IMG/VR virus record: IMGVR_UViG_3300042691_038938
Direction: 5' to 3' (one strand)
Length of the DNA: 64,000 nt
Origin: a virus
Taxonomy: Duplodnaviria > Caudoviricetes
Part shown: piece after piece, positions 49,048 to 63,842 of the stretch
Layout: each line of letters begins with the position of its first letter
Position numbering within the stretch: the first letter of the stretch is position 1
Made by a program: the position numbers and the translations under genes
Notes under the pieces: model-generated
What the model saw: only the letters and a program-made list of their open reading frames with translations
The model's database searches: none
What the model was told of the DNA's origin: nothing

Positions 49048-49131
49048 CTGCTTTTGTTTTTAAGTTTATATAGTAAATATACTACTAAAGAACCCAAATG
49101 TACAATCCTGGCGTGAGTAAATTCGGGAGAC
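49048..49131 (-). promoter_or_regulatory. Repeated early-type promoter element 1
   Basis: GTCTCCCG...AGGATTGTACA-N17-TATATTTAC...TTAAAAACAAAAG. Confidence 0.85.
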
Positions 49132-49171
49132 GCGACCTGCCTGGACTAGCTCCATTACTACGGAGTAAAAC

Positions 49172-49200
49172 AAAAAAGCCAGCCTCTTGCGAAGCTGGCC
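49172..49200 (-). terminator. Rho-independent terminator
   Basis: GCCAGC-N10-GCTGGC plus T6 on -. Confidence 0.75.
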
Positions 49201-49225
49201 GACCCGGAAAAGCAGGAACCTAGGT

Positions 49226-49411
49226 CTAATTACTTATCTGAACTCCAACAGTCTGCCACTGTGTTATGGTGTACTCAAAGCCTTCCTCTTCGGGCATGGC
49301 CATCTTTAATCTCTCTCTGACATCAAGCGCTCTGGCAACCGTAGTTATCGATCTCTTATCAGTGGAGAAGTAATGCTTCCCATCCTTGCTTACGTTTATC
49401 TCGTACCACAT
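49226..49411 (-). CDS. Hypothetical protein
   Basis: 61 aa, coupled to upstream gene. Confidence 0.7.
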   Translation of the reverse strand: MWYEINVSKDGKHYFSTDKRSITTVARALDVRERLKMAMPEEEGFEYTITQWQTVGVQISN

Positions 49412-49416
49412 GTCTC

Positions 49417-49848
49417 CTAAAATTCGATTACTCCTGAGATTACTAGATTGAGTGGAACAGGGTCCTCATCATTGTGAGAGGTCTTCACGAGCCACTCTCC
49501 CTCCTGAGTGAACAGGTATCCATACTCCTCGATGTCTGACTTAAAGAATGAAGAGACTGACTCGTCCTTACGTGGATCAGTGTCGTCCTCACCTCGGTCT
49601 CTGCCGTATGCGACTGTGACTCCCTTCTCCCGCTGGTCATAGTCGAAGCCGTGTGGGCCGGTTGGGTGCACCTTCTTGCCCAGTAGCGATAGGTCTCCTA
49701 GAGCGATGAGGTCCTTCACCTTCTCTGGGTCTTGATAGTGGGTGTGTAGGATGAACCCGTTGTATTCGATGTAACCGTCACTGTGACAGTATACTGAGAG
49801 AACTGAGCCGTCCTCTTGCTCCATTGCGATTCTTGATCTTGTTGCCAT
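49417..49848 (-). CDS. Conserved phage hypothetical protein
   Basis: MATRSRI...SVYCHSDGY. Confidence 0.75.
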   Translation of the reverse strand: MATRSRIAMEQEDGSVLSVYCHSDGYIEYNGFILHTHYQDPEKVKDLIALGDLSLLGKKVHPTGPHGFDYDQREKGVTVAYGRDRGEDDTDPRKDESVSSFFKSDIEEYGYLFTQEGEWLVKTSHNDEDPVPLNLVISGVIEF

Positions 49849-49933
49849 GCTGCTTTTGTTTTTAAGTTTATATAGTAAATATACTAAGATTCTTGTGACT
49901 TGTACAATCCAGTGGACCTAAAAGTCGGGAGAC
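49849..49933 (-). promoter_or_regulatory. Repeated early-type promoter element 2
   Basis: Same consensus; spacer identical to elements 3 and 4. Confidence 0.85.
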
Positions 49934-49941
49934 GGTGCCGC

Positions 49942-50175
49942 CTACTGCGGGAAGAGAAAGTCCTGCACTTCTTTGAGTAGACCCGGATACTCGTCCTCAC
50001 TGAAGGTGTCTCCATACTGGTCAGTCATGAAGGTATCGATGACAGCTTCTTCCTGAGTCAAGATCTCGGTGTAGACAATCGTGATCTCCTCTTCCTCGTC
50101 GTTTAATATGTATTCACGTACGATTACTGGGTTCTTTTCTTCTTGCTTGAGCAATTCAAATCTTGGTGTTTTCAT
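49942..50175 (-). CDS. Acidic hypothetical protein
   Basis: Between two promoter elements. Confidence 0.7.
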   Translation of the reverse strand: MKTPRFELLKQEEKNPVIVREYILNDEEEEITIVYTEILTQEEAVIDTFMTDQYGDTFSEDEYPGLLKEVQDFLFPQ

Positions 50176-50257
50176 CTGCTTTTGTTTTTAAGTTATAAGT
50201 AAATATACTAAGATTCTTGTGACTTGTACAATCCTGCCGTGACAGAAATCAAGAGAC
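50176..50257 (-). promoter_or_regulatory. Repeated early-type promoter element 3
   Basis: Same consensus. Confidence 0.85.
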
Positions 50258-50283
50258 GTTATTCCTCTTCCGTTACATGGTTT

Positions 50284-50499
50284 CTAAATTTCAATAATAT
50301 CAACATCAGTTACTTCAAACGAAAATATATCAAGCTCATCAATCACTTCCTCGTCATATCCGTATTCATCTGCCATCATCTTTTTAACCTCATCTTCGGC
50401 CTGCTCGGACTCTTTGCATTTGATATGAAAGATAACCGGGCTATCTAGCCCAACTGAGTATCCCTCATCTGATACTACTACGCAAAATAATTTCTTCAT
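50284..50499 (-). CDS. Acidic hypothetical protein flanked by the direct repeat
   Basis: 71 aa. Confidence 0.7.
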   Translation of the reverse strand: MKKLFCVVVSDEGYSVGLDSPVIFHIKCKESEQAEDEVKKMMADEYGYDEEVIDELDIFSFEVTDVDIIEI

Positions 50500-50581
50500 G
50501 GTTTCTGCTTTTAAGTTATAGTATAAATATACTAAGATTCTTGTGACTTGTACAATCCTGCCGTGGCAGAAATCAAGAGAC
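50500..50581 (-). promoter_or_regulatory. Repeated early-type promoter element 4
   Basis: Same consensus. Confidence 0.85.
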
Positions 50582-50582
50582 G

Positions 50583-50789
50583 CTATTCCTCTTCCGTTAC
50601 ATGGTGAGCCTCGATCTCGAAAGAGTTGTTCTCTAAAAAAGAGTTGAGTGCGGGCTGCTCTCCCTTAAAGTAGACGATTGCGGATGGGCCTCCTGCGCCA
50701 AGATGAGTCCACTCCAATCCTTCGTACTCTAGCTCGTGTATTACTGAGTCCACCTTTTCTGGGTCTACAAAAATGCTGAATGCTTTCAT
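50583..50789 (-). CDS. Hypothetical protein
   Basis: 68 aa. Confidence 0.7.
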   Translation of the reverse strand: MKAFSIFVDPEKVDSVIHELEYEGLEWTHLGAGGPSAIVYFKGEQPALNSFLENNSFEIEAHHVTEEE

Positions 50790-50868
50790 GGGTTTGATTT
50801 AAGTTATAAGTAAATATACAAAGACTAATTAGTATTGTACACTTCTACGGAGTAAACTTTCGGGAGAC
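50790..50868 (-). promoter_or_regulatory. Repeated early-type promoter element 5
   Basis: Consensus, with CTACGGAGT between the -35 and the GAGAC box. Confidence 0.85.
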
Positions 50869-50872
50869 CTGG

Positions 50873-51142
50873 CTAGAAGGTTGCCTTAGTCTCCATCGCG
50901 AAGACGAGCTCCACGCCCCACGGAAACTTATAGGCTCTGAACCCACCTGTCCCTGTAGACATAGTCTCTTCTGAATTCTGCATTGCGTTGACTAGAAGAA
51001 TCGCCGCAGTTCTTTTTAAATCATCTATCGTCGGCATCTCACCTCTCCATTTCCAATCAACCTGTACCATGTAGTCGTGCACCTTTTGAAAATCGAATCT
51101 ATCGATGATCTGTCCTATCGTCTCTGCGTGTTTCTGTTCCAT
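50873..51142 (-). CDS. Hypothetical protein
   Basis: FDFQKVHDYM...W...STGTGGF. Confidence 0.7.
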   Translation of the reverse strand: MEQKHAETIGQIIDRFDFQKVHDYMVQVDWKWRGEMPTIDDLKRTAAILLVNAMQNSEETMSTGTGGFRAYKFPWGVELVFAMETKATF

Positions 51143-51151
51143 CTTTCCTGC

Positions 51152-51361
51152 TTATTGGTTTTCTAATCGGGTTAACTTCTTGTTTAGGGTCTTTAGCCTG
51201 CCCTTGAGTCTCTTGGTCTCGAGCCTACGTAGGTAGGGACCGTGATTGTAGGTGCTGCCTTCCCATGCCATGGTCCAAACAGTCTTATCGTTCTTTAGGA
51301 ACTCTATCCTTGCGTCGATCTTTTGGATGAGGTCTAATATCTCCTGTCTAGTCATCGCCAC
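51152..51361 (-). CDS. Hypothetical protein
   Basis: Coupled by stop/start overlap. Confidence 0.65.
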   Translation of the reverse strand: MAMTRQEILDLIQKIDARIEFLKNDKTVWTMAWEGSTYNHGPYLRRLETKRLKGRLKTLNKKLTRLENQ

Positions 51362-51603
51362 TACTTTAGAATGAATACTGTCTCTTCCTCGTGGATGCCC
51401 TCTTCTGTGTCCAGTCCAAGTCCTTCCATGATGGGCTCAAACTCTTCCTGATTCTTGACCAGGACCATGAATCCAGGATCGTCGGTAATATCCTCTCCAC
51501 AGTTTAGGAAGCCCAAATAACCTGAGCTATTAGGATTGAGTTGGAAATCGTTCTTTACCTTGAGTAGGAATAGAACACCGGCTTTGAATTCTTCTTTAGT
51601 CAT
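51361..51603 (-). CDS. Hypothetical protein
   Basis: Directly after promoter element. Confidence 0.7.
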   Translation of the reverse strand: MTKEEFKAGVLFLLKVKNDFQLNPNSSGYLGFLNCGEDITDDPGFMVLVKNQEEFEPIMEGLGLDTEEGIHEEETVFILK

Positions 51604-51685
51604 CTGCTTTTGTTTTTAAGTTATAAGTAAATATAATAAAAACTTGGGTATGAGTACAATCCTATGATGGGTAAATTCAGGAGAC
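51604..51685 (-). promoter_or_regulatory. Repeated early-type promoter element 6
   Basis: Same consensus. Confidence 0.85.
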
Positions 51686-51701
51686 TCGGTGCCAAGTCGG
51701 C

Positions 51702-51998
51702 TCAGTAACCCTCTTCTCCAAAAAACGCGGTTGCCGTTATGCTATATGACTTTCCTTCAAGCATAAATGAGATTTCCCAGATATCATCAAAGTGATTCTT
51801 TCTGCCGGTTAGCTCTACCTCTGTTTCCATTAGCTCTACTAATTTCTCAAGGGTGCTAGTTCCATAATCGTCGGCTCCTATACTTTGGGCATGGACTCCA
51901 TCAACTAACATAGTATTCGTTACTTGCCAGTTCTCCATCCAATTCGATCCCATGTACCAATCAAAGAGTCCATCAATCGTTGTTGTTGCGGTATTCAT
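51702..51998 (-). CDS. Hypothetical protein
   Basis: 98 aa. Confidence 0.7.
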   Translation of the reverse strand: MNTATTTIDGLFDWYMGSNWMENWQVTNTMLVDGVHAQSIGADDYGTSTLEKLVELMETEVELTGRKNHFDDIWEISFMLEGKSYSITATAFFGEEGY

Positions 51999-52058
51999 CT
52001 GCTTTTGTTTTTAAGTTATAAGTAAATATAATAAACGCTTGAGCATTTGTACAATCCT
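51999..52058 (-). promoter_or_regulatory. Repeated early-type promoter element 7 (no GAGAC box)
   Basis: -35, -10 and leader conserved. Confidence 0.8.
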
Positions 52059-52067
52059 GTTGAAAGA

Positions 52068-52985
52068 TTATTCGTTTATTTGAAATCCGCTAGCGTACTT
52101 AAGAAATTCCTCAAACTCGATTCCTAGTCTCTCCATTACTAACGTGCTTAGTTTGATGGGTCTCCCTCCATATTGAGTAGATTCACTGGCAGGGTCGACT
52201 ACTCTTATGATAAAAGGGGACAGCTCATCTTCTTGTAAAATCCTAATCAGTCTAGAAGTAGTTGAGCAAAAGGTTGTCCCGAAAAAGAAATGCCATGGAC
52301 GACCATTGCTTTTTAGGAATACCTCTTCTTTGATCTCAAAGACGGACTCCAATAGCTCCTTGACCTGGATCTTTCCATATGGATCCTTTTTCCCGTATTC
52401 CACATCGATCACGTCAATTAGTTCGTCGTCAACACCAAAAGATTCTTTAAGATTAGCGAGTGCATCTTTTCTTACCATGAAGTCCTCATCCACGCATAAC
52501 TTGACTAGAAGATCCTTCGGTGTCATTTCATGTTTAGCCGCTCGGCATCTCTCAACCCAATTAAAAGATTTGGAAAATCTCTCCAATATCTCGAGCCGAG
52601 TGGAGTCAAGAGTGTTTTGGTGACGAAGTATTTCGGATTGTAGATCCGGCTCCTCCTTTGCAAACTTAGAAAGAATTTCAGCTGGACAGAAAGGGGAGCT
52701 CACGTATTTCTTCCTTGTCGCAAGTGACTTCACGTTAGGGTCAAACTTCTCCTCCTTAGTCGAGACCTCGATTGATTCGATCTCATAGGTTCCAATGGAC
52801 ATCGACCGTGAATCTCTTCCGTATGAGTCGATCACGTTACACATGTATTCATGGATCTTTTGATTGGCCACTTTCTCGGCATCCTCTTGGCTTTCTCCAT
52901 GAACCATGAAAGTCTTAGTTGGCATAAAGGACGGGCGTCGTTGTGCGCTCGATGTTCTCTTAAATTGTACGCGATACCTTTTCAT
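52068..52985 (-). CDS. Protein with HEAT/LRV-like repeats
   Basis: CPAEILSKFA, TPKDLLVKLCVDEDFMVR. Confidence 0.6.
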   Translation of the reverse strand: MKRYRVQFKRTSSAQRRPSFMPTKTFMVHGESQEDAEKVANQKIHEYMCNVIDSYGRDSRSMSIGTYEIESIEVSTKEEKFDPNVKSLATRKKYVSSPFCPAEILSKFAKEEPDLQSEILRHQNTLDSTRLEILERFSKSFNWVERCRAAKHEMTPKDLLVKLCVDEDFMVRKDALANLKESFGVDDELIDVIDVEYGKKDPYGKIQVKELLESVFEIKEEVFLKSNGRPWHFFFGTTFCSTTSRLIRILQEDELSPFIIRVVDPASESTQYGGRPIKLSTLVMERLGIEFEEFLKYASGFQINE

Positions 52986-53065
52986 ACTTCTGTTTTTAAG
53001 TTATAAGTAAATATAACCAAGAATCAGGCATTTGTACAATCCTGGCGTGGGTAAAATCGGGAGAC
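52986..53065 (-). promoter_or_regulatory. Repeated early-type promoter element 8
   Basis: Same consensus. Confidence 0.85.
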
Positions 53066-53068
53066 GCT

Positions 53069-53233
53069 TTACTCCTGCTCTGCAATGGAGCTCACCTCAT
53101 CGAGCAGCGCAATCATCTGAGAAAAGACGAACTCTTCCACCTCGGTCTCGGCGCCTTTCAGCTCCTCTCCATATGCAAGCTTTCTGCCCGTAATAAAGTC
53201 TCTCACTGCTTGTAATCTTTCTTTATCGTTCAT
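53069..53233 (-). CDS. 54-aa hypothetical protein (not in ORF track)
   Basis: MNDKERLQAVRDFITGRKLAYGEE...; fills the gap exactly. Confidence 0.6.
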   Translation of the reverse strand: MNDKERLQAVRDFITGRKLAYGEELKGAETEVEEFVFSQMIALLDEVSSIAEQE

Positions 53234-53234
53234 C

Positions 53235-53492
53235 CTAATAATATTTGATCTTTACTATCGTTACTTGTTGTTCTCCCTTCAGGCTCTTAAGGGTATAAGC
53301 ACCCTTTACCTTAATCGTCTCTAGCACCTTGCGATAGCTAGAGTCAGGATCAGCCACTCTTCCCAAGAACATGCCGACTTCATATGCCTTCTTCAGGTTG
53401 GAGCAGACGGCAAGCGTCTCCACGAGTTCTTGCTCCCACTGGAGACCGGTCTCCCTATTGCTCATTACCAAGTAAACCTCTCTTCTCTTCAT
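53235..53492 (-). CDS. Hypothetical protein
   Basis: Operon packing. Confidence 0.65.
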   Translation of the reverse strand: MKRREVYLVMSNRETGLQWEQELVETLAVCSNLKKAYEVGMFLGRVADPDSSYRKVLETIKVKGAYTLKSLKGEQQVTIVKIKYY

Positions 53493-53730
53493 CCTCTATC
53501 TTTTTTTGTAGGTCCCTAATGAAAGCACAGTCCTCATACTTTTCTTCGCTCTCAAAGTGTCTTAACATCGTCTTTAGAGCTGAGATCTTTTGTGAGACTT
53601 GGTGACCGTCCTCTACTGCCAGGTCGGGAAACCTTTTTAGAGACTCCAGCACCAGCTGCATGAAGAGTGATGGGTCCCGCTCTCGTATCTCCAATAGAGA
53701 TGCCAAGAACTCTTCATCCTGCGGATTCAT
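53455..53730 (-). CDS. Hypothetical protein with UvrB/UvrC-like C-terminal motif
   Basis: EKYEDCAFIRDLQKKI. Confidence 0.55.
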   Translation of the reverse strand: MNPQDEEFLASLLEIRERDPSLFMQLVLESLKRFPDLAVEDGHQVSQKISALKTMLRHFESEEKYEDCAFIRDLQKKIEDEEKRGLLGNEQ

Positions 53731-54031
53731 CCCTCTCCTTCTTTATGGCGGTTAGTACTTGTTCCTCGATCTCTAATACCTTCTCCTCGCCTACTCTCTC
53801 TGAGAGCTCAAGCTTGAGACGATCGTATGCCGATTGTGCACCCTCTATCTTGCTGGTAAAGAAGGGAAGGGGCGTCCCTTTTCCTAGCTCCTTAGCCAGG
53901 TCGAGGTAGATCGCAGTTGATTGGAAAGCTTCTGCCAGTTGGCGTGAGCTCCTCTTAAAGAAGTCTCGGAGACCCTGTTCTTCCAGGTAGTGCTCCTCAT
54001 CTTCGTAAAAAACTATAAATTGTGTGTTCAT
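53714..54031 (-). CDS. Hypothetical protein
   Basis: 105 aa. Confidence 0.7.
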   Translation of the reverse strand: MNTQFIVFYEDEEHYLEEQGLRDFFKRSSRQLAEAFQSTAIYLDLAKELGKGTPLPFFTSKIEGAQSAYDRLKLELSERVGEEKVLEIEEQVLTAIKKERDESAG

Positions 54032-54033
54032 GA

Positions 54034-54195
54034 CTACGGAGTAAAAAGTAAGTAAATCGGCCAGAGAATCAATATCGCCAGCGTCTGTATCGGACCGTTC
54101 ATCTCATATCCCTTGTTACTTAGGTAGAGTAGAGTGGTAAAGCCTGCTGCGGTCCAGAGCAGCAGGCTTAGTATTATGATTATGGTTGTTATCAA
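54034..54195 (-). CDS. Possible 53-aa two-TM peptide (TTG start overlapping the sigma stop)
   Basis: ITTIIIILSLLLWTAAGFTTLLYL...LAILILWPIYLLFTP; its stop lies inside the polar motif. Confidence 0.4.
   Translation of the reverse strand: MITTIIIILSLLLWTAAGFTTLLYLSNKGYEMNGPIQTLAILILWPIYLLFTP
54140..54169 (-). terminator. 11-bp hairpin after the sigma gene
   Basis: AAGCCTGCTGC-N8-GCAGCAGGCTT; short U-tract. Confidence 0.45.
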
Positions 54196-54905
54196 TTGAT
54201 TCGCATTTTTTCTAGCGATGCCTTCACGATCTGGCTGACACGAACGTTTGACATGTCGTAGCGCTCAGCGATCGCATCAGTCGGCATCTCATACTCTCGG
54301 TCTATGCCGAAGTAGTCCATCACGATCAGGCGGTCACGTTCCTTTAGGGAGCTTAAGACCTTCTTTACCTTGAACTTGATGTCGTCGATCTCGATCTCAG
54401 ACTCAGTTTGGGATGGAGAGTGTAGGATGAGGTCGCCTAGAGACGTGCCGCCTTCTTCTCCTACTCGATCGTCGATGTAGGCACGCTTGGGTTCTTCGAC
54501 CTCCTCATGATTCATCTTGGCCTTGTAGATCTCGTATTCCTGGTTGTGAGGCAGTCTCACTATCCGGCCCGTCTTAGCGACTGCTTCGTTAAGTCGTTTA
54601 CGAATCCATAGGCTCGCGTATGAAATGAATCTCTGACCCTCTTTGGGCTTGAAGTTCTTTGCGGCTTCCATCAAGCCGATGTTGCCCTCTTGGATGAGGT
54701 CGTCGATGGGCACTCCTTGACCTATGTGGCGGTTTGCAAGCTTCACCACGAATTTTAGGTTGGCCTGTACGAGCTCGTTAAGTGCCATACGATCTCCCTC
54801 TTGGATTAGTTTTACCAGTTCGATCTCACGATCGTGCGTCACTGGCGTGCTCTTTTGAATAGTACGAAAGTACTTTGGCAAGTTTTCTGAAGTTTCAAAT
54901 CTCAT
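54192..54905 (-). CDS. Sigma70-family factor, Bacteroidota RpoD-like, shortened region 3
   Basis: ANLKFVV, DLIQEGNIGL, RFISYASLWIR, IVRLPHNQ, C-terminal HTH RVSQI. Confidence 0.9.
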   Translation of the reverse strand: MRFETSENLPKYFRTIQKSTPVTHDREIELVKLIQEGDRMALNELVQANLKFVVKLANRHIGQGVPIDDLIQEGNIGLMEAAKNFKPKEGQRFISYASLWIRKRLNEAVAKTGRIVRLPHNQEYEIYKAKMNHEEVEEPKRAYIDDRVGEEGGTSLGDLILHSPSQTESEIEIDDIKFKVKKVLSSLKERDRLIVMDYFGIDREYEMPTDAIAERYDMSNVRVSQIVKASLEKMRIN

Positions 54906-54967
54906 GTTCTTTATGTTTTTAAGTTATATAGTAAATTTAACAAATTACTCTGATTCTGTACAATCCT
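54906..54967 (-). promoter_or_regulatory. Repeated early-type promoter element 9 (no GAGAC box)
   Basis: -35 lies in the last codons of 54945-55154. Confidence 0.75.
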
Positions 54968-55154: not shown

Positions 55155-55178
55155 CTTTTCTGCTTTTTTCTTTTTATA

Positions 55179-57614: not shown

Positions 57615-57644
57615 TCTTTTGACAGGTCTTGACAGAGCACAAAG

Positions 57645-57670: not shown

Positions 57671-57713
57671 GTTCCTACAACTTAAAACAACTTCTTTGTT
57701 ACTACGGAGTAAA

Positions 57714-58276: not shown

Positions 58277-58335
58277 CTTTTTTGTTTTAAGTTATATAGT
58301 AAATATACTAAATTCTCTAGTGCTTGTACAATCCT
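58277..58335 (-). promoter_or_regulatory. Repeated early-type promoter element 14 (no GAGAC box)
   Basis: -35, -10 and leader conserved. Confidence 0.8.
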
Positions 58336-58696
58336 AGCGTAAACTCTTTAAGAAATCTTTGTCGACTCTGTGGAGTTCTATCTCTGCAATCTGGAGACCG
58401 TCAAACCCCATTCCTATTAGAGCCTGCTTAAATGGTACCCATACGTTCTCTTTGTGTGGTACGCCGCTTGCATATCCATGATAATCTCTCGTGCCCCATA
58501 CGGCAACGACTGCCTTGGCTCTTCGTACCAATTTAACGGGGTCTTTGATGAGCTTAGACTGCTTCTCAGCTAGACTCTGGATAGGCGAGCCATTACCATA
58601 AAACCAGTTTCGCATGCCGTGTTTGTAGAAGTCCATCTCCAGTGCACGGTGATAGTCCTTTGTTTGAGGTTCAATTGATGTTACCTGTAAATTCAT
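58334..58696 (-). CDS. Hypothetical protein
   Basis: Start moved to MNLQVTS after the promoter leader. Confidence 0.7.
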   Translation of the reverse strand: MNLQVTSIEPQTKDYHRALEMDFYKHGMRNWFYGNGSPIQSLAEKQSKLIKDPVKLVRRAKAVVAVWGTRDYHGYASGVPHKENVWVPFKQALIGMGFDGLQIAEIELHRVDKDFLKSLR

Positions 58697-58777
58697 TGTG
58701 CTTGTTTTTAAGTTATAAGTAAATGTAATAATAATAACTGATAATGTACAATTAGTCGGCCCTAAAAGCCGAGAGAC
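58697..58777 (-). promoter_or_regulatory. Repeated early-type promoter element 15
   Basis: Same consensus. Confidence 0.8.
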
Positions 58778-58792
58778 GCTGGGATACTGGGC

Positions 58793-58819
58793 AAAAAAAG
58801 ATCCCGATTTCTCGGGATC
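58793..58819 (-). terminator. Rho-independent terminator
   Basis: GATCCCGA-GAAA-TCGGGATC plus T7 on -. Confidence 0.8.
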
Positions 58820-58829
58820 AAATTGAGTC

Positions 58830-59321
58830 TTATAATGGCGGACCTCCGAACCACCATCTACCTCGTTGATATGTTTCACAAGGACCAAGTCGATCTCGAA
58901 TCTCTTGAGTACATTTTGGATTGTTTAGCACGTAATAGCGAATCGCATCGTTCTTCTCATGGCTTAGGATCTCAAGAAGGTTCTCTGGGATCTCCTCATT
59001 TTTTGCGAGCATACGTTTGACGTCGGGCCGATCGTTAATGAGATTGGCTAGGACGTCCGCTGGAGTCGACGGATTTCCTGCGACTCTTGATCGAATCACA
59101 CTGCTTCGATCCTTCGAAAGCTTTCGTAAGACGTCGCTTGGACACGTTCGGTTTTTGGCAACGATATCCTTGAAAGTGGTCGAGCTCAATGACTCCAATG
59201 CCATTGGGTCGGATGTCGTCTCCGCGATGGTGCTTAACCGTACACCCTTGTCGATCGAGGTCAATGTACGATCTCTTTTGATTTTTTTAATTTGGTCTAA
59301 GACGCTCATGTTTTCTTGCAT
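58830..59321 (-). CDS. Leucine-rich-variant (LRV/HEAT-like) repeat protein
   Basis: VAKNRTCPSDVL, VAGNPSTPADVL, LAKNEEIPENLL, VLNNPKC. Confidence 0.75.
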   Translation of the reverse strand: MQENMSVLDQIKKIKRDRTLTSIDKGVRLSTIAETTSDPMALESLSSTTFKDIVAKNRTCPSDVLRKLSKDRSSVIRSRVAGNPSTPADVLANLINDRPDVKRMLAKNEEIPENLLEILSHEKNDAIRYYVLNNPKCTQEIRDRLGPCETYQRGRWWFGGPPL

Positions 59322-59404
59322 AGCTTTTAAGCTTTTAAGTTATGTATAAATATAACAATAATAACGAGTAATGTACAATCCTGGCCGAAAGACTTTTGGG
59401 AGAC
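59322..59404 (-). promoter_or_regulatory. Repeated early-type promoter element 16
   Basis: Same consensus. Confidence 0.85.
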
Positions 59405-59412
59405 CTGTAGAT

Positions 59413-59943
59413 CTATTTCACAAAGAGCGTGCAATTGGTGTAAGGAAAGGAATGTTCTCCAAGCTTTACCTCAAGCTCCTCGAGGTCGAACCCCATCTCC
59501 TCACAAACAGAAGATATTGTCTCAGGACTAGCTTCATTTGGAACCTGGAACCCGCTCACCTTAAGAAACTTGAGAGCTGCATCTAGCCTAGCTTGCTCCT
59601 CATTAAGGGACTCAACGGTCGTCACCATCGATGCGGTGCCTAGGGGCAGGCTAGAGTAGCGGTTTGCCAGTATCGCAACTGAGAAAGTCTCCGTCTCATC
59701 AGGAACGGTAGGAACTTCAGCTCCCTCAAGGAAATTGAGAAGATCACCTACTTTCTCGACGTCCTCTAATTCTTCAGGAATCTTTACTCCAAACTTTTTC
59801 TCGAGCTTTATGATTACCTCGACGATGTCCAATGCATCCATTCTAAGATCGTCCATTAGGCTCGTGTTCTCGTCGATCTCAGCGCACACTGCATACTCCT
59901 CAACGTGAAGTCTAATTATCTCAAATACTTTTTCTTTTAACAT
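59413..59943 (-). CDS. Acyl-carrier-protein-like domain (Ser to Ala) fused to an unknown domain
   Basis: EKVFEII...DDLRMDALDIVEVIIKLEKKFGVKIPEE...KVGDL. Confidence 0.8.
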   Translation of the reverse strand: MLKEKVFEIIRLHVEEYAVCAEIDENTSLMDDLRMDALDIVEVIIKLEKKFGVKIPEELEDVEKVGDLLNFLEGAEVPTVPDETETFSVAILANRYSSLPLGTASMVTTVESLNEEQARLDAALKFLKVSGFQVPNEASPETISSVCEEMGFDLEELEVKLGEHSFPYTNCTLFVK

Positions 59944-60024
59944 GGTGGTAGGTTTTAAGTTATAAGTAAATATAACTACGATCCCTGAATAAGTACAATC
60001 CTGTGATGGGTAAATTCAGGAGAC
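59944..60024 (-). promoter_or_regulatory. Repeated early-type promoter element 17
   Basis: Same consensus. Confidence 0.85.
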
Positions 60025-60068
60025 CAGTTGGATCCAGTCTTGATCCAACGTACTACGGAGTAAACGAC

Positions 60069-60091
60069 AAAGGGTCAGCTCCCGCTGACCC
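60069..60091 (-). terminator. Repeated terminator module A
   Basis: GGGTCAGC-GGGA-GCTGACCC-TTTG. Confidence 0.75.
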
Positions 60092-60115
60092 CAGTCTCTA
60101 ACCTAAAACAACTTC

Positions 60116-60310
60116 TTAATATTCGCCTTTGTCGTATTCCTTTTTCAAGAGTTCAACGATCATTTCTCTCTCCTCCTCTAACATTCTGTTGTTGGCGAAG
60201 GAAACTAGGATGTCGGCAACGGTTAGCCCATGTTCTCCTGAGTCTACCATTCCTACTAGGATTTCTCCAAGGACGTCGTTTCGTGTTGATTCGTTTGCTG
60301 ATTTTTCCAT
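60116..60310 (-). CDS. Hypothetical protein
   Basis: 64 aa ending EY-stop. Confidence 0.65.
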   Translation of the reverse strand: MEKSANESTRNDVLGEILVGMVDSGEHGLTVADILVSFANNRMLEEEREMIVELLKKEYDKGEY

Positions 60311-60318
60311 GGGTTCTA

Positions 60319-60708
60319 TTATTTAAAGAGTGCAATTATCTTATTCTCAAGCTCACGATCGAACGCGATATCATTATTACAATCGTCATCGAACTCGTGA
60401 CTAACACATCCCGCTAAGAGGTCGAGAGCGTTTGATTCCATCTCCACTCCTTCCTCGTCCTCCCACTCGAAGTTGAAGAAGTCTCTAGAATCTCCATGCA
60501 CCACCACATCGATGGTCCCATCCTCGCGTACCCTCCATGCAGGATAGTGACTATTAAGAACGAACTCTAGTGCTTCAGCCTCAGCATCACTCTCGCACTG
60601 CTCTTCCCAATTGGCAATGAAGCTATTGACATGATTGGTGATGGCAACGTACAGTGCACTGTCGATCTTCTCTACCTCATTGTCGTTAAGAAACCTTTGA
60701 TTTGTCAT
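60319..60708 (-). CDS. Acidic hypothetical protein
   Basis: 129 aa. Confidence 0.7.
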   Translation of the reverse strand: MTNQRFLNDNEVEKIDSALYVAITNHVNSFIANWEEQCESDAEAEALEFVLNSHYPAWRVREDGTIDVVVHGDSRDFFNFEWEDEEGVEMESNALDLLAGCVSHEFDDDCNNDIAFDRELENKIIALFK

Positions 60709-60790
60709 AGTGTTTAAGTTTTAAGTTATAAGTAAATATAACAAATGCTTTCAAATAAGTACAATCCTGTGCTCAGCAAATTTGGGAGAC
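60709..60790 (-). promoter_or_regulatory. Repeated early-type promoter element 18
   Basis: Same consensus. Confidence 0.85.
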
Positions 60791-60822
60791 ACTCAGGCTT
60801 GAAGTTGAAAGGAGTTGAAACG

Positions 60823-60845
60823 AAAAAGCGGAGATTTCTCTCCGC
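60823..60845 (-). terminator. Rho-independent terminator
   Basis: GCGGAGA-GAAA-TCTCCGC plus T5 on -. Confidence 0.75.
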
Positions 60846-60850
60846 CTCGA

Positions 60851-61375
60851 CTATCCTATCTTGCTCGCTATCTGCCTCACCTTGTTGACGTAATCGGGAT
60901 CCCCTGCGTAATTCTTTTTGAGGTACTGCAAGTATTCTTCTCTCGTCTTACACTTTTTCGTGTAGGCAGCCTGGAAGAGCGCGTAGTCCATGACGCTATG
61001 CTGCCACGACTCGTACTTTGCGTGACCCTTGTATTCTCCTATCGCGGTCGTGGGTCGCTGCCTTGCCACCTTCATGCCGAAGAGGTTATTACCGTTCCTA
61101 AAGATGTTAGAGGTGAATCGCCCAGTCTCGACTATTGCTTGAGCGTAGACGATGTCATAGTACTTGACTCTCATCTCCTTCAGGGTCTCTAGAAGCTTTT
61201 CCTTGCTGAAGCTCGGATCGACTGGTTTTACGGGTTCTACTCGAGCGACTCTCTCTAACTTGAGACCCGATACTTCAGGTTTCTTTAAGAACGACAGCGA
61301 GATGATGAGTCCAAAGCAGACTCCGGTAAATCCATAAAGCAATCTTTTAAACGGTTCCATGTTTACTGTTTCCAT
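60851..61375 (-). CDS. Membrane-anchored GH73-like glucosaminidase
   Basis: TM LLYGFTGVCFGLIISLSFL; AQAIVETG, NNLFGMK, YAGDPDY; start moved to METVNM. Confidence 0.8.
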   Translation of the reverse strand: METVNMEPFKRLLYGFTGVCFGLIISLSFLKKPEVSGLKLERVARVEPVKPVDPSFSKEKLLETLKEMRVKYYDIVYAQAIVETGRFTSNIFRNGNNLFGMKVARQRPTTAIGEYKGHAKYESWQHSVMDYALFQAAYTKKCKTREEYLQYLKKNYAGDPDYVNKVRQIASKIG

Positions 61376-61456
61376 CTTTTTTGTTTTTAAGTTATGGTTA
61401 AATATAACCATTATCTTTGGATAAGTACAATCCTAGTTGCAGAAAAACTGGGAGAC
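61376..61456 (-). promoter_or_regulatory. Repeated early-type promoter element 19
   Basis: Same consensus. Confidence 0.85.
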
Positions 61457-61565
61457 TCGTCTGCTACAGGAATTCGGCTTCCCTACTTTGAGCTCGGGGC
61501 GCCATGGCACATGGGCTCTCTCGGAGTCTCAGCGGGCAGGGGCTCGGCTCTACGGAGTAAACGAC

Positions 61566-61588
61566 AAAGGGCCAGCTCTCGCTGACCC
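61566..61588 (-). terminator. Repeated terminator module B
   Basis: GGGTCAGC-GAGA-GCTGGCCC-TTTG. Confidence 0.75.
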
Positions 61589-61613
61589 CTCGTCTCTAAC
61601 CTAAAACAACTTC

Positions 61614-62006
61614 TTAATATTCCTCTTCCTCGTCGTAGTCCTCTTCTTCTCCTTTCGTATCAATCTCTATCTCACCGATCCGGATTATTCCGTCTTCCTC
61701 GCTAGTTTCAAAGTCCTCCTCAAAATCAAAGGTGTTTCCTAACGTAATTTCCAAGTGTCCCTCTGTTATATCATCGACTAGCACACAACCGATCGATCCC
61801 GAATCTACTGGATACCCGTTACCGTGCTGATCGGGATACACTCCGTCTCCGTAAGCGGTCCCATAGATCGCGAACTTGGTCCCATCCTTAAGCTCAAACT
61901 CTCCGTCCAAACAGTTGTGGTCCACGATGATGAGGTCACACACCTCAGTCCAACGGTCTCCCAAAACATAGCATAGGTCTCCAACATAATACTTGCCTGC
62001 TTTCAT
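61614..62006 (-). CDS. Conserved phage hypothetical protein
   Basis: YYVGDLCYV...GTAYGDG...VDSGSIG. Confidence 0.75.
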   Translation of the reverse strand: MKAGKYYVGDLCYVLGDRWTEVCDLIIVDHNCLDGEFELKDGTKFAIYGTAYGDGVYPDQHGNGYPVDSGSIGCVLVDDITEGHLEITLGNTFDFEEDFETSEEDGIIRIGEIEIDTKGEEEDYDEEEEY

Positions 62007-62089
62007 ACTCTTTTAGTTTTTAAGTTATAGTTAAATATAATCATTTCTTTCTAATCTTGACAATCCTGCATCGGATAAAGTCGGGAGAC
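62007..62089 (-). promoter_or_regulatory. Repeated early-type promoter element 20
   Basis: Same consensus. Confidence 0.85.
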
Positions 62090-62122
62090 CTGCTCCCATT
62101 CTTCTACTACGGAGTAAACGAC

Positions 62123-62145
62123 AAAGGGTCAGCTCCCGCTGACCC
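62123..62145 (-). terminator. Repeated terminator module C
   Basis: Identical to module A. Confidence 0.75.
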
Positions 62146-62151
62146 CAGTCT

Positions 62152-62256
62152 CTAACTCAATATGAATCTGATTATGTTTCCGATAATGATGAACGATCCC
62201 AATAGGATCAGGATCGCCCACATGATTTGCTCGAATAACTCGCTTCCTCTTCTCAT
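62152..62256 (-). CDS. 34-aa membrane peptide (not in ORF track)
   Basis: MRRGSELFEQIMWAILILLGSFIIIGNIIRFILS. Confidence 0.5.
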   Translation of the reverse strand: MRRGSELFEQIMWAILILLGSFIIIGNIIRFILS

Positions 62257-62260
62257 GACT

Positions 62261-62515
62261 CTATAGGTTTGAGAGGAAGATTTCCTGGTTCACTGAAACG
62301 CTTCTCCACGACTGTTTCTCAAGATCGAAGAAGGTGACCTGCCGAGGAGAGCTCTCTCGCACTCCCTTAGGGTGGTGGTCGCTAGGAATGGTGGTAAGGT
62401 TGGTCGTACCTACCGCGGTACGCAAGGTCCCGTCTAGTTTCTTGAATGCGAACTGCACTGCTCCGCTTCTCAATCTCTGACGCAATACTTCTGGTGAAAT
62501 CGGCTCTAATACCAT
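62261..62515 (-). CDS. SH3-like beta-barrel (WYL_2/DUF2693-like) protein
   Basis: FAFKKLDGTLRTAVGT...FFDLEKQSWRSV. Confidence 0.75.
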   Translation of the reverse strand: MVLEPISPEVLRQRLRSGAVQFAFKKLDGTLRTAVGTTNLTTIPSDHHPKGVRESSPRQVTFFDLEKQSWRSVSVNQEIFLSNL

Positions 62516-62608
62516 GTCTTTTATGTTTTTAAGTTATAGTTAAATATAACCATTATTCGTTAAAAGTAAAAATCCTGTGTAAAAATTTTTCGCCTAAAAT
62601 CAGGAGAC
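62516..62608 (-). promoter_or_regulatory. Repeated early-type promoter element 21 (box shifted by 10 nt)
   Basis: GAGAC at 61 nt rather than 51; box encodes V-S-stop of the upstream gene. Confidence 0.8.
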
Positions 62609-62887
62609 CCGGCCGTGCTTGGCTTTAACGTAAGCCCTCGCGTTTTGAGCAGTAATGTGAGCGTCATTGCATACTCGAAACTCAATACCTTCTTGGCTGG
62701 TGTACACCCACTCGGTCGTGGGATCGAACTCTGGCCCGGTTGAGTGGGAAAAGTTAAATACCATTGAGTTACCAGTCTTGGCTGAGACTACCTCGTACTG
62801 GGTATCAAACTGGACATCCTTTTCTGAAACTTTGATAATCCCTGTTTCAACTGAAAATCTTACCTCTTTAAGGTTTACTCTCTTCAT
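62600..62887 (-). CDS. Hypothetical protein
   Basis: Start moved to MKRVNLKE. Confidence 0.7.
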   Translation of the reverse strand: MKRVNLKEVRFSVETGIIKVSEKDVQFDTQYEVVSAKTGNSMVFNFSHSTGPEFDPTTEWVYTSQEGIEFRVCNDAHITAQNARAYVKAKHGRVS

Positions 62888-62968
62888 TCTTCTTGTTTTT
62901 AAGTTATGTATAAATATAACCATTATACTTGAATAAGTACAATCTTCTTTACGATAAAGTCGGGAGAC
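62888..62968 (-). promoter_or_regulatory. Repeated early-type promoter element 22
   Basis: Same consensus. Confidence 0.85.
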
Positions 62969-62996
62969 ACGCCCGATCGAGCCAAGATTACCAAAC

Positions 62997-63020
62997 AAAA
63001 AAAGCCAGCGTAAGCTGGCT
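62997..63020 (-). terminator. Rho-independent terminator
   Basis: GCCAGC-TTAC-GCTGGC plus T7 on -. Confidence 0.75.
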
Positions 63021-63040
63021 CTCCATTAAACTGTGACTGA

Positions 63041-63301
63041 TTATGACTTGACTATCTTATAAGTGATACACTCATTATCCTCGTCGAACTCATGATTCTC
63101 ATCTGAGAGGGTGTACCCCATCTTTTCCAAAGCATCTAAGACCGGTTCGTTAACACAATCGTTAGCGTTCTCAGCAGCGGCTTCTAAGTCTAGCCTCCAT
63201 CTCTTACGACTGTCCCACTCACTCGACTCATAATAGACTACCATCTTAGTAAAATCATCAGTGATCGTTCCGGTGCAATTAAAACCGATTTCCATTTCCA
63301 T
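63041..63301 (-). CDS. Acidic hypothetical protein
   Basis: Start moved to MEMEIGF. Confidence 0.7.
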   Translation of the reverse strand: MEMEIGFNCTGTITDDFTKMVVYYESSEWDSRKRWRLDLEAAAENANDCVNEPVLDALEKMGYTLSDENHEFDEDNECITYKIVKS

Positions 63302-63382
63302 GTTGTTTGTTTTTAAGTTATAGTTAAATATAACCATTATTCTTCAGTCTTGACAATATTGTCTTGATTAAAATCAGGAGAC
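63302..63382 (-). promoter_or_regulatory. Repeated early-type promoter element 23
   Basis: Box and -35 lie inside the end of 63337-63513. Confidence 0.8.
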
Positions 63383-63513
63383 AGGAACATGGCTAGCCTA
63401 GCGGGAATCACCACCGTCATGTTACATGAGTCACAACATCGACCCGAGTTTACGGGCTCAGCATTGTTTGACCGATTCTCTTGAATTGACTCTTTACAGA
63501 TTGAACATTTCAT
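63337..63513 (-). CDS. Small Zn-finger protein
   Basis: CSIC...NNAEPV...CCDSCN; start moved to MKCSIC. Confidence 0.7.
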   Translation of the reverse strand: MKCSICKESIQENRSNNAEPVNSGRCCDSCNMTVVIPARLAMFLSPDFNQDNIVKTEE

Positions 63514-63529
63514 CTCTTTTGTTTTTAGG

Positions 63530-63760
63530 TTAAAGTAAATTCCAAATATCCTGTGTCGCGTCGTAGACAAAGATGTCTCCGGCATGTCCGTCCTTGAACA
63601 CTAGTGAGGTTCCCTTCTTCTCTATCACGTAGCGAATGCCTAGGTCCTCCTTGATGTCTCTCTTGGCAGAGGCGATTGAGATTCTGGATAATTCCGCCCA
63701 CATGTCGATTAGAGAATCGTGAGCGCTTGAGTGCTCCTTCTTAAGATCAGTTAGATTCAT
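63530..63760 (-). CDS. Hypothetical protein
   Basis: 76 aa directly after promoter. Confidence 0.7.
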   Translation of the reverse strand: MNLTDLKKEHSSAHDSLIDMWAELSRISIASAKRDIKEDLGIRYVIEKKGTSLVFKDGHAGDIFVYDATQDIWNLL

Positions 63761-63842
63761 GTCTTTAAGTTTTTAAGTTATAAGTAAATATAACAATAAT
63801 AATCTTTACTTTAAAATCCTGGCCTAATAAAAATTGGGAGAC
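63761..63842 (-). promoter_or_regulatory. Repeated early-type promoter element 24
   Basis: Same consensus. Confidence 0.85.

Follow-up and report, generated by a model that had tools for sequence, protein, structure and literature searches.

Genomic context and content of the array

The window analysed here, that is the whole stretch of 64,000 nucleotides, is part of an uncultured freshwater jumbo phage with a T4-type portal, whose genome, judging from relatives, is about 250 kb long. Its genes include those encoding a helicase, a DNA polymerase, a portal, a head-closure protein and a primase; the portal is similar to those of T4-type and of huge Bacteroidota-associated phages, and the host is probably a member of the Bacteroidota. 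A Shine-Dalgarno (SD)-like motif, defined by a loose pattern, is found upstream of just 4 of the 43 ORFs checked, and many of these ORFs are preceded by a separate late-type GATAAATAA box.

One part of the window carries an array of small genes in which each copy of a repeated element is followed by one to five ORFs on the same strand; an earlier note on this DNA had given one to four, so that the co-oriented small ORFs stand and the range is wider. The cargo named in that note agrees with our analysis: the ACP-like protein, sigma factor, LRV repeats and hydrolase have Pfam matches, CxxC mini-proteins are visible in the ORF translations, and the mostly small acidic cargo is reflected in a pI of 5.3 or less for 22 of 35 sense-strand ORFs (hand count). 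The majority of array ORFs have no PHROG family match and, because most of the cargo is ORFan, the proposed enrichment in anti-defence genes finds no support. The sigma gene occurs in at least 510 metagenome stretches and in each of the four relatives for which the fetched stretch includes its position (the G005 stretch ends earlier). The main genes of the array and its flank are the following.

62261–62515, minus: WYL_2 (Sm-like SH3) small protein, family F1 (Pfam)
60851–61375, minus: glucosaminidase-domain protein (Pfam Glucosaminidase), hydrophobic N-terminus
59413–59943, minus: ACP-like protein (Pfam PP-binding), phosphopantetheine-site Ser changed to Ala, C-terminal extension of ~100 aa
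58830–59321, minus: LRV-repeat protein (Pfam LRV_2)
54192–54905, minus: sigma-70 family factor (regions 1.2, 2, 4; Pfam Sigma70 r2 and r4), family F3
52068–52985, minus: 305-aa ORFan cassette, present in the window, missing from X11, L130 and G001
47438–48556, minus: RadA/Sms-like RecA-family ATPase, directly downstream of the array, conserved flank F21
44630–45322, plus: IS607-like serine recombinase, 3.7 kb from the array

Architecture of the repeated element

The motif AGGATTGTACW-N15-19-TATATTTA has 12 exact matches, all on the minus strand between 49074 and 61434 (0 expected, 100 shuffles), and the use of TAACTTAAAA as an anchor with at most one mismatch yields 24 full copies of the element plus two leader-only remnants (63532 and 56847). 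A profile built from the 24 copies gives exactly 24 nhmmer matches (E values from 5.5e-11 to 2.8e-20), which all lie within 49047–63847 on the minus strand, in agreement with the 24 co-oriented copies of the earlier note; elsewhere in the 64 kb, all of which was scanned, no further element was found, the next-best match having E>1. The array is truncated by the window edge, because identical overlapping contigs (L122, 100% identical by blastn over 54319–64000, and L210, with the same genes) carry nine extra elements beyond position 64000; the full count is thus at least 33 elements over about 20 kb, 24 of them within the window.

The element is about 85 bp long, with its 3' end some 6–11 nt ahead of the ATG in all 24 co-oriented copies, and has the consensus GTCTCccgAnttt-N~12-AGGATTGTac-N18-TATATTTA-N3-5-TAACTTAAAAaC-N6-10-ATG. 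From 5' to 3', a GTCTC/T-run box at about -60, in which GTCTC..GAC forms a partial inverted repeat, is followed by a box resembling -35/-33 (GGATTGTAC). A spacer of 18 nt separates the latter from the invariant -10/-7-like box TATATTTA, after which come the invariant leader/start region TAACTTAAAAAC and an A-rich tract, lacking an SD, that leads to the ATG. A block of 26 nt within it is nearly invariant between genomes, the -33 region differs by lineage (AGGATTGTAC, AATTTTCAGG or CCCCGATTTTT), and the 18-nt spacer is identical in three neighbouring elements (copies 21, 22 and 23). The copies, located by nhmmer with additional evidence in brackets, are listed here together with the endpoints discussed below.

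63761–63847, minus: copy 1, promoter and leader, ATG at 63760 (57.3 bits)
63302–63385, minus: copy 2, upstream endpoint of the 784-bp indel (X11 comparison)
62888–62973, minus: copy 3
62518–62613, minus: copy 4, heads WYL_2 gene, downstream endpoint of the 784-bp indel (X11 comparison)
62008–62093, minus: copy 5
61375–61460, minus: copy 6, heads glucosaminidase gene
60712–60793, minus: copy 7
59944–60027, minus: copy 8, heads ACP-like gene, endpoint of the 1247-bp indel (X11 comparison)
59324–59407, minus: copy 9, heads LRV gene
58696–58781, minus: copy 10, endpoint of the 1247-bp indel (X11 comparison)
58277–58351, minus: copy 11, no GTCTC box (sequence)
57534–57617, minus: copy 12, endpoint of the 1.1-kb indel (L130 comparison)
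57092–57177, minus: copy 13
56365–56451, minus: copy 14, endpoint of the 1.1-kb indel (L130 comparison)
55770–55853, minus: copy 15
54908–54999, minus: copy 16, heads sigma-factor operon, no GTCTC box (sequence)
52986–53068, minus: copy 17, endpoint of the u305+u98 indel (missing from X11, L130, G001; comparison)
51998–52074, minus: copy 18, no GTCTC box (sequence)
51603–51689, minus: copy 19, endpoint of the u305+u98 indel (X11 comparison)
50795–50872, minus: copy 20, endpoint of the 0.9-kb indel (L130 comparison)
50499–50584, minus: copy 21, endpoint of a stretch replaced in X11 (X11 comparison)
50175–50260, minus: copy 22, spacer and 22-nt upstream flank common to copy 21 (sequence)
49850–49936, minus: copy 23, endpoint of indels in both L130 and X11 (comparison)
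49047–49135, minus: copy 24, the last, heads F20, RadA-like ATPase and F35

Judging from their composition, the elements would be promoters with leaders that are read early. A likeness to the Bacteroidota -33/-7 promoter, suggested previously, holds for the TTG-N21-TATATTTA spacing, which agrees with the derived consensus, and for the SD-less leader with an A-run at -10 to -14, which matches the Bacteroidetes translation-initiation pattern (PMC6847099). It fails at G-5 of the -7 box TAHHTTTG, nearly invariant in Bacteroidetes (PMC6847099), where every copy has A (the consensus is that of Bacteroidetes, the presumed host group). This A leaves doubt about which sigma factor recognises the element, and the boxes are equally readable as a sigma70-type promoter (TTGTAC/TTGTCA-N18-TATATT).

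Predicted terminators and additional motifs

About 10 of the 24 elements are preceded by a GC hairpin and T-run, and these hairpins may act as terminators. Predicted terminators were flagged by a scan, apart from that before copy 6.

63888–63911, minus: hairpin and T-run, before copy 1
62999–63024, minus: before copy 3
62125–62146, minus: repeated GGGGTCAGCGGGAGCTGACCC type, before copy 5
61569–61591, minus: repeated GGGGTCAGCGGGAGCTGACCC type, before copy 6 (sequence reading)
60825–60848, minus: before copy 7
60071–60092, minus: repeated type, before copy 8
58800–58819, minus: before copy 10
57649–57670, minus: before copy 12
55873–55889, minus: before copy 15
49177–49200, minus: before copy 24

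The array has additional conserved parts, namely ACTCCGTAG and an anti-leader complementary to the leader: GTTTTAGGTTA with GAGAC complements the leader start TAACTTAAAAC with the GTCTC box. The motif TTTACTCCGTAG has 10 matches at up to one mismatch (9 exact) versus 0.19 expected.

61597–61607, minus: anti-leader GTTTTAGGTTA, then GAGAC (sequence)
60099–60109, minus: anti-leader GTTTTAGGTTA, then GAGAC (sequence)
57678–57688, minus: anti-leader GTTTTAAGTTG (sequence)
63871–63882, minus: TTTACTCCGTAG (motif count)
62107–62118, 61550–61561, 60053–60064, 57702–57713, 54034–54045, 50845–50856, 49158–49169, 46119–46130: further exact copies of TTTACTCCGTAG

Variation of the array among relatives

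We compared the window with four IMG/VR relatives, the metagenome contig L130 (82–96% identity) and the strain X11 (~96–97% identity). The array is found in all of them, but cassette content and order vary. The four IMG/VR relatives have 7–16 exact element copies (13–29 by profile) in a single co-oriented array with the same flanking genes, and families common to relatives occur in differing order. Adjacency is conserved for 17 of 95 gene pairs with an intervening element versus 51 of 85 without one; part of this contrast is expected, as pairs of the second kind sit close together within operons. Upstream halves of elements are 50% alike within a genome, 41% between genomes and 47% between elements heading orthologous genes. 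In distant relatives, breakpoints could not be placed within elements and the linkage of halves to neighbouring genes was weak.

Comparison at strain level revealed five distinct multi-cassette indels or replacements, and all ten endpoints lie within elements, with 19–66 nt of common sequence at the joints. X11 lacks the two-cassette blocks 58706–59952 (1247 bp) and 62524–63307 (784 bp); at these joints two elements meet in register, and the stretches matching both sides measure 19 and 35 nt. It also lacks ~51686–53031 (the u305 and u98 cassettes), an event common to the independent assemblies L130, G001 and X11. L130 lacks 57536–56436 (1.1 kb) and 50797–49916 (0.9 kb), and its junction elements are visibly chimeric, aligning to both parental elements over 55–66 nt. 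The crossover site varies, falling in the -7 box/leader in three events and in the interval from the GTCTC box to the -33 box in one. These data are assembled contigs, and a 35-nt repeat might in principle mislead a k=31 assembler; such an artefact is countered by the 19-nt joint, which cannot arise in this way, by the depth inside the three blocks skipped by X11 (0 in two, low in the third), and by the agreement of assemblies. Shuffling by recombination at the element, as proposed in the earlier note, is therefore sustained; a fixed gene order with no breakpoints in elements was looked for among relatives, and clearly the opposite was found.

Interpretation

We consider it likely that this is an early hyperplastic region of at least 33 co-oriented mini-operons, in which the repeated modules drive homologous cassette shuffling of the type known from promoter-early stem-loops (PeSLs). 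Every mini-operon would open with one standard ~85-bp expression module, composed of a strong promoter for the host RNA polymerase holoenzyme, presumably active soon after infection, joined to an optimised translation start, so that each small gene set would be its own transcription unit. The modules are long direct repeats of nearly identical sequence, and the genome comparison shows that, as a result, entire cassettes are deleted, inserted, replaced and moved through homologous exchange between them. This could take place inside one genome or among co-infecting relatives, and a dedicated integrase would not be required. Cassette content would then change fast while each newcomer retains working expression signals.

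It is decidedly unlikely that the elements are plain repeated promoters and that illegitimate recombination happens anywhere, with intergenic events surviving selection and endpoints merely seeming element-borne. Elements fill most of the intergenic space of the array (about 60%, a rough estimate), so that intergenic-only indels would often strike them anyway, and both the partly expected adjacency contrast and the weak linkage of element halves in distant relatives are compatible with this view; however, the combination of in-register joints, shared sequence of 19–66 nt and chimeric junction elements is what homologous exchange leaves behind, every endpoint of the five events falls in an element, the upstream halves have become more uniform within each genome, and identical spacers occur in neighbouring elements. 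Highly improbable is a true phage integron analogue, in which the elements are sites of the IS607-like serine recombinase, perhaps helped by the RadA-like ATPase. This gene, 3.7 kb away, means that the array is not strictly "integrase-free", as had been claimed: it is conserved in three of five related contigs (in G001, G004 and G003 it lies beside the array and is 67–73% identical), the GTCTC..GAC partial inverted repeat might bind a dimer, and a RecA-family ATPase adjoins the array. Yet crossovers are not at a fixed site and show no link to the recombinase, their positions vary among events, and the joints have long common stretches, versus the fixed 2-bp core of serine recombinases; moreover the gene stands behind a late-type GATAAATAA box, and the contigs of G002 and G005, both fragments, yielded no copy of it.

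A further reading, unlikely in our judgement, concerns the reader of the promoters, which would be the phage sigma factor (54192–54905) and not the host primary sigma, making the array a delayed-early/middle regulon. The wide occurrence of the sigma gene (four of four covering relatives and at least 510 metagenome stretches) and the deviation of every copy from the host consensus at G-5 speak for it, and the invariant boxes, with a lineage-specific -33 region, would mirror the specificity of that factor. Against it, the sigma gene itself stands behind such an element, so another factor must fire first, TATATTTA is unchanged in lineages whose sigma is only ~45–60% identical, and the boxes also suit the sigma70-type TTGTCA-N18-TATATT. 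If true, this reading would alter the promoter reader, not the cassette shuffling.

Comparison with known systems

The array resembles integrons in its small co-oriented cassettes with content turnover, an analogy already made for PeSLs by Arbiol et al. (PMC2839356). It differs from them in lacking a tyrosine integrase, an attC site 3' of promoterless cassettes and a single Pc promoter; promoters come with the individual cassettes, and exchange appears homologous, not site-specific. The "integron-like platform" proposed earlier is an analogy only, since none of the defining features of integrons is present.

The host-takeover module of Bacillus phage SPO1, reportedly described by Stewart et al. 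in 1998, consists of about two dozen small early genes in a compact block. It is organised in many short operons, each with a strong early promoter and a terminator; these promoters are of the host sigma-A type with SD sites, and the module is located in the terminal redundancy. The array shares with it a compact set of small early genes in short operons with their own promoters and terminators, and is SD-less; cassette shuffling at the SPO1 module promoters has not, to our knowledge, been reported.

PeSLs are mobile regulatory cassettes of the T4-type phages RB49/phi1, PST/T4 and nt-1/KVP40, whose crossovers have been placed in the interval from the -10 box to the ATG; their promoter and terminator activity and mini-circles have been demonstrated, whereas the array is known here from sequence (PMC2839356; PMC4122927). 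The sequences are unrelated, and the array differs in its SD-less, A-rich, Bacteroidota-like leader, where PeSLs have a Shine-Dalgarno site, in its GTCTC box at ~-60, in a clear hairpin at only ~10 of 24 copies, in its additional anti-leader and ACTCCGTAG, and in its density and regularity (33 copies per 20 kb, with a 26-nt near-invariant block). Both are repeated composite modules of ~85–100 bp, that combine a terminator hairpin and an early-type promoter with signals for translation start and the ATG, clustered and co-oriented with the genes of an ORFan-rich hyperplastic region in phages with T4-type structural genes; in both, indel or replacement endpoints of close relatives fall within modules, often from the -10 box to the ATG, and chimeric modules result. 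On these sequence comparisons, the array represents PeSL-type modular shuffling (PMC2839356; PMC4122927) in a phage clade new for it, whose expression signals are different.

The repeated element and the extent of the array

The minus strand of the window carries, in its last third, an array of cassettes, each composed of a promoter-like element and the small ORFs behind it. A strict core pattern of the element occurs 12 times, always on the minus strand (49074-61434), against a chance expectation of 0 for the window search. When the leader word TAACTTAAAA is used as anchor, 24 full copies and two leader-only remnants (63532 and 56847) are found, and a profile built from these 24 copies recovers exactly 24 (E 5.5e-11 to 2.8e-20, 49047-63847), with no further copies in the 64-kb window, where everything else has E>1. 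The anchored search and the profile thus bear out the 24 co-oriented copies of a promoter-like element described in the earlier note. The consensus reads GTCTCccgAnttt, about 12 nt, AGGATTGTac, 18 nt, TATATTTA, 3-5 nt, TAACTTAAAAaC, 6-10 nt and ATG; TATATTTA is present in 24/24 copies, two of which have one substitution, a GATTKT-type box lies 18 nt 5' of it, and the ATG follows 17-21 nt past the leader start in all 24. Behind every copy there are one to five ORFs on the same strand. About 10 of the 24 copies have a clear GC hairpin and T-run ahead of them, and the remainder lie directly behind the upstream stop codon.

The array extends past the window edge. Two contigs of the same genome, one 100% identical to window 54319-64000 (L122) and one overlapping the same region (L210), add nine elements (L210:3500-8600), whose -33 box is the variant TTTTAATTGTCAG, and place the array start about 4.9 kb past the window end, giving 33 elements in about 20 kb; beyond the window end the array is interrupted by a ferritin-like gene on the opposite strand (L210).

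Three consecutive elements (50175-50584 and 49850-49936) have an identical 18-nt spacer, AAGTCACAAGAATCTTAG, and two of them also have in common 22 nt upstream of the GTCTC box, coding in one and non-coding in the other, which points to recent local duplication or gene conversion. The element is not MITE-like, because target-site duplications are absent, no copy departs from the common orientation and the register to the ATG does not vary. A reading of the GTCTC box as part of a consistent hairpin was also dropped, since the upstream sequences give no common stem.

Promoter reading and probable host

Judging by its position, its fixed register to the ATG, a pair of boxes spaced as in promoters and the terminators in front of it, the element is probably a promoter fused to a translation-initiation region; we infer from sequence both its promoter activity and its early timing. 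Two readings of the boxes compete. As a sigma70-type promoter the element reads TTGTCA/TTGTAC/TGTACA-N17-18-TATATT and scores 9-10 of 12. The likeness to the Bacteroidota -33/-7 promoter proposed in the earlier note holds in part. The Bacteroidota sigma-A promoter has a -7 box TAHHTTTG, with G-5 nearly invariant, and a weak -33 TTTG about 20 nt upstream (PMC6847099). The element reads TTG-N21-TATATTTA, with spacing at most 1 nt off this consensus, and TATATTTA matches TAHHTTTG at 7/8 positions, but G-5 is replaced by A in every copy. The leader, AACTTAAAAACAAAAGCAG-ATG, is devoid of a GGAG-type Shine-Dalgarno site; an A-run at -10..-14 fits the Bacteroidetes translation-initiation pattern (PMC6847099) and is a candidate host-specific counterpart of that site. 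The element may therefore be read by a sigma70-type or by a Bacteroidota sigma factor, and a conserved sigma factor is also encoded in the array itself.

The window encodes a helicase, DNA polymerase, primase, portal, head-closure protein and PhoH. The portal family is common to 2022 phage records, by name tally mostly T4-type phages and cyanophage myoviruses but also huge phages; the best matches, at 30-38% identity, come from Prevotella Lak phages and from huge phages known from metagenomes. The IMG/VR relatives are contigs of 70-137 kb rated 28-54% complete, which implies genomes of about 250 kb for the group. Shine-Dalgarno sites are virtually absent throughout, a loose motif of this kind preceding only 4 of the 43 larger ORFs of the window. 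In view of the freshwater source, the relatives of the portal and the A-rich leaders that lack an SD site, the host probably belongs to the Bacteroidota. Near-identical DNA was not found in GenBank phages, nor tRNAs or Rfam families in searches of the window. About 20 nt 5' of many start codons, on both strands of window 1-44000, lies GATAAATAA, by its sequence a putative T4-late-like promoter box; it would form a second class of promoters, different from the element of the array.

Exchange of cassettes between strains

The array is wholly or partly present in twenty public runs, none of them recorded as RNA; a possible RNA run (X20) has a share of just 0.05. One of the twenty, X11, yields contigs of a strain about 96-97% identical to the window, in which three blocks are skipped:

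Blocks of the window skipped in strain X11
58706-59952, ACP-like and LRV cassettes; joint at equal leader position of two elements, 19 nt fitting both sides
62524-63307, two ORFan cassettes; 35 nt fitting both sides
about 51686-53031, cassettes of 305 aa and 98 aa

Depth in X11 is zero in the first and third blocks and low in the second, and 49864-50581 is replaced, with both ends within elements. In an independent JGI contig (L130, 82-96% identical), 57536-56436, 50797-49916 and the 305-aa/98-aa block are missing. Over 55-66 nt, the junction elements of this contig can be aligned with both parental elements; of the two crossovers, one falls in the invariant -7 box/leader block and the second lies between the GTCTC and -33 boxes. 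Altogether, five different events were resolved. Their ten endpoints are all inside elements, although elements occupy about 14% of the array; their share of its intergenic DNA is roughly estimated at about 60%. Because the crossover positions vary and the shared stretches are long, homologous exchange is favoured over site-specific exchange.

This comparison rests on assembled contigs. An assembly artefact is unlikely because the 19-nt joint is shorter than the assembler word size, the depth gaps agree, and three independent assemblies share one event. Contigs of two other runs (X4 and X9) also contain joints that go back along the array, as those of an excised mini-circle would, but the sides of these joints measure only 24-32 nt and lie within the repeat; we attribute them to repeat ambiguity and set them aside.

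Order, content and element classes in distant relatives

The core pattern retrieves four distinct related IMG/VR contigs and a near-duplicate of one of them. Each has a single co-oriented array, with 7-16 exact copies (13-29 by profile) and the same flanks, namely a divergent gene block on one side and the conserved family F20, a RadA-like ATPase and the family F35 on the other. The arrays have 49 protein families in common, whose order differs, and content varies among the relatives. Two shared families remain neighbours in 17 of 95 cases where an element lies between them versus 51 of 85 where none does, although these counts are not independent and the contrast is partly expected for operon partners. 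The shuffling of cassettes at the elements, as the earlier note had proposed, is thus upheld by differing order and content among relatives and by the endpoints of all five strain-level events. Breakpoints within elements were also sought among the relatives of about 70% identity, where the signal is too weak (proximal half 0.53 against a background of 0.45).

The 26-nt -7 box/leader block GTTATATTTAcTTATAACTTAAAAAC is almost invariant in all genomes, and the upstream half is specific to lineage or class (AGGATTGTAC, AAACGCATTACC, AATTTTCAGGTCCC, CCCCGATTTTT). In three relatives (G001, G003 and G005; stretches L116, L120 and L121) the 5' half of the array has AAACGCATTACC in place of the GGATTGT box, with the same -7 box and leader; these elements may form a sub-class of early promoters under separate regulation. 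Likeness of the upstream half is 50% within a genome, 41% between genomes and 47% for elements heading orthologous genes. Since it is highest within genomes, concerted evolution is indicated.

Cargo of the cassettes

Family matches and translations show that the cargo named in the earlier note (an ACP mimic, a sigma factor, LRV repeats, Zn fingers and a hydrolase) is real: they give a Glucosaminidase, a PP-binding ACP-like protein, LRV_2, a sigma-70 factor (regions 2 and 4), WYL_2 and CxxC mini-proteins. The description of the remainder as mostly small acidic unknowns also agrees with the data, acidic products being the majority of the array proteins and most matching no PHROG family. For the 129-aa protein (60319-60708) the look-up gave same-strain contigs only, and no variants.

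59413-59943, minus strand, ACP-like protein that aligns to solved ACPs, with a C-terminal extension of about 100 aa

In this protein, gone from strain X11, the phosphopantetheine serine (DSLD) is an alanine (DALD), which makes it a candidate ACP mimic that cannot be loaded. At least 510 metagenome stretches, mostly from lakes and freshwater according to labels and runs, encode relatives of the sigma factor; among them are contigs as long as 271 and 465 kb. Where the identity of the sigma factor is about 57% or more, the element of the window can be detected, and relatives further removed have repeated boxes of their own (TTGTTAATAACTT, GATTTTTTCCTGTC).

Putative recombination enzymes beside the array

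Two genes of the flank are of interest in this context:

47438-48556, minus strand, RadA/Sms-like, UvsX-like RecA-family ATPase, conserved just downstream of the array
44630-45322, plus strand, IS607-like serine recombinase (NCBIfam 89 bits, below the cutoff of 110), behind a GATAAATAA box

Besides the window, G001 and G002, the two relatives whose stretch extends to this place, have the ATPase next to the array; it is possibly a phage recombinase beside the most recombinogenic region. The serine recombinase is kept at 67-73% identity beside the array in three of the five related contigs (G001, G004 and G003). The array had been called integrase-free: this stands insofar as the scanned flanking genes include no tyrosine recombinase, but not for recombinases in general, as the IS607-like enzyme adjoins the array. 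Nothing ties its gene to cassette exchange.

The 44-48 kb region has a GC content of 0.50-0.53 versus about 0.40. Besides the recombinase gene, it includes a GC-rich non-coding stretch (45850-46110), rich in GGGAGAC/GTCTCCC words and partly conserved in G001, in which no Rfam match was found.

A second repeated module

Several of the hairpins are part of another repeat, a module of about 75 bp with three components: (AAGAAGTT)GTTTTAAGTTA(GAGAC), the hairpin GGGGTCAGCGNGAGCTGRCCC with its T-run, and TTTACTCCGTAG(TA). The last word, TTTACTCCGTAG, has 9 exact copies and one at a single mismatch, against 0.19 expected. All are on the minus strand between 46119 and 63882, that is, in the array and its flank only, usually directly after terminator T-runs and once fused to a gene start (54034-54045). 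The words GTTTTAAGTTA and ACTCCGTAG/TTTACTCCGTAG are kept in relatives, the latter in all of them, and distant ones repeat ACTCCCTAGTAC in place of TTTACTCCGTAG. A MotA-box-like middle promoter was rejected for TTTACTCCGTAG, because no -10-like box follows at a fixed distance and because ACTCCGTAG lies inside terminator loops in G002.

The word GTTTTAAGTTA, here called the anti-leader, is often followed by GAGAC; reverse-complemented, GTTTTAAGTTA-GAGAC exactly matches the leader start TAACTTAAAAC and the GTCTC box. In the window it is found at:

61597-61607, minus strand, anti-leader
60099-60109, minus strand, anti-leader
57678-57688, minus strand, anti-leader

About 18 copies were counted in five genomes (the window and the relatives' stretches L116-L121), always intergenic and 5-12 nt ahead of terminator hairpins. 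In predicted full-length cassette mRNAs the first 9-13 nt would pair with the anti-leader 420-620 nt downstream, mostly with probability 0.8-1.0, and in read-through RNA a helix between the anti-leader and the leader of the next cassette is predicted to enclose the entire inter-cassette region (z -3.7 and -2.6). Cassette-specific co-variation of anti-leaders with their own leaders was not found (mean rank fraction 0.49, n=24, Wilcoxon p=0.77), the only hint being that 4-T/5-T anti-leaders go with 4-A/5-A leaders.

We consider it improbable that the inter-cassette module is more than promoter and terminator, with anti-leader and ACTCCGTAG forming a folded RNA or a single-stranded DNA junction. 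Such a junction might give early mRNAs a 5'-3' 'panhandle', insulate read-through transcripts translationally, or be a folded substrate for recombination, which the neighbouring RadA-like and IS607-like enzymes could possibly serve. If this were true, a large clade of freshwater jumbo phages would have a dedicated cassette system.

Significance and comparison with known systems

With the array, shuffling of the kind known from promoter-early stem-loops (PeSLs) in T4-like phages of enterobacteria and vibrios also has an example in freshwater jumbo phages that form a large, uncultured clade, and natural populations yield sequence-level evidence of cassette exchange inside the repeated module. 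The invariant 26-nt block is a candidate strong early promoter and translation start, usable as PCR primer or search pattern to harvest the variable early-gene pool, in which host-takeover and counter-defence genes would be expected.

The array is not an integron, and the integron-like platform suggested earlier is an analogy only. An integron has an IntI-type tyrosine integrase and an attI site, while the scanned flank genes hit AAA/RadA-like, DUF and serine-recombinase (Resolvase, IS607-like) families only. Moreover, integron cassettes are promoterless, end in attC and depend on a single Pc promoter, whereas here a promoter-like repeat stands 5' of each cassette, 24 in all, with neither attC site nor single Pc.

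The closer likeness is to PeSLs. In both, a repeated module with -35/-10-type boxes at fixed spacing ends at the downstream start codon and is clustered in an ORFan-rich hyperplastic region of a phage with a T4-type portal; in both, indel and replacement endpoints lie inside the modules and leave chimeric modules. PeSLs of T4-type phages have crossovers between the -10 box and the ATG (PMC2839356; PMC4122927), and the array matches them in architecture, genomic setting and mode of exchange, these crossovers included. The PeSL module, in contrast, has a stem-loop terminator directly upstream and a Shine-Dalgarno site, whereas in the array a hairpin lies ahead of only some copies and the leader is SD-less. 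The array also differs in its unrelated sequence, an extra GTCTC box, a very high copy density and extra conserved words (the anti-leader and ACTCCGTAG). Promoter and terminator activity and excised mini-circles with a chimeric module are known for PeSLs; the promoters and terminators of the array are putative. The array embodies no new principle, the mechanism being already published; it is a new and unusually clean example of PeSL-type arrays.
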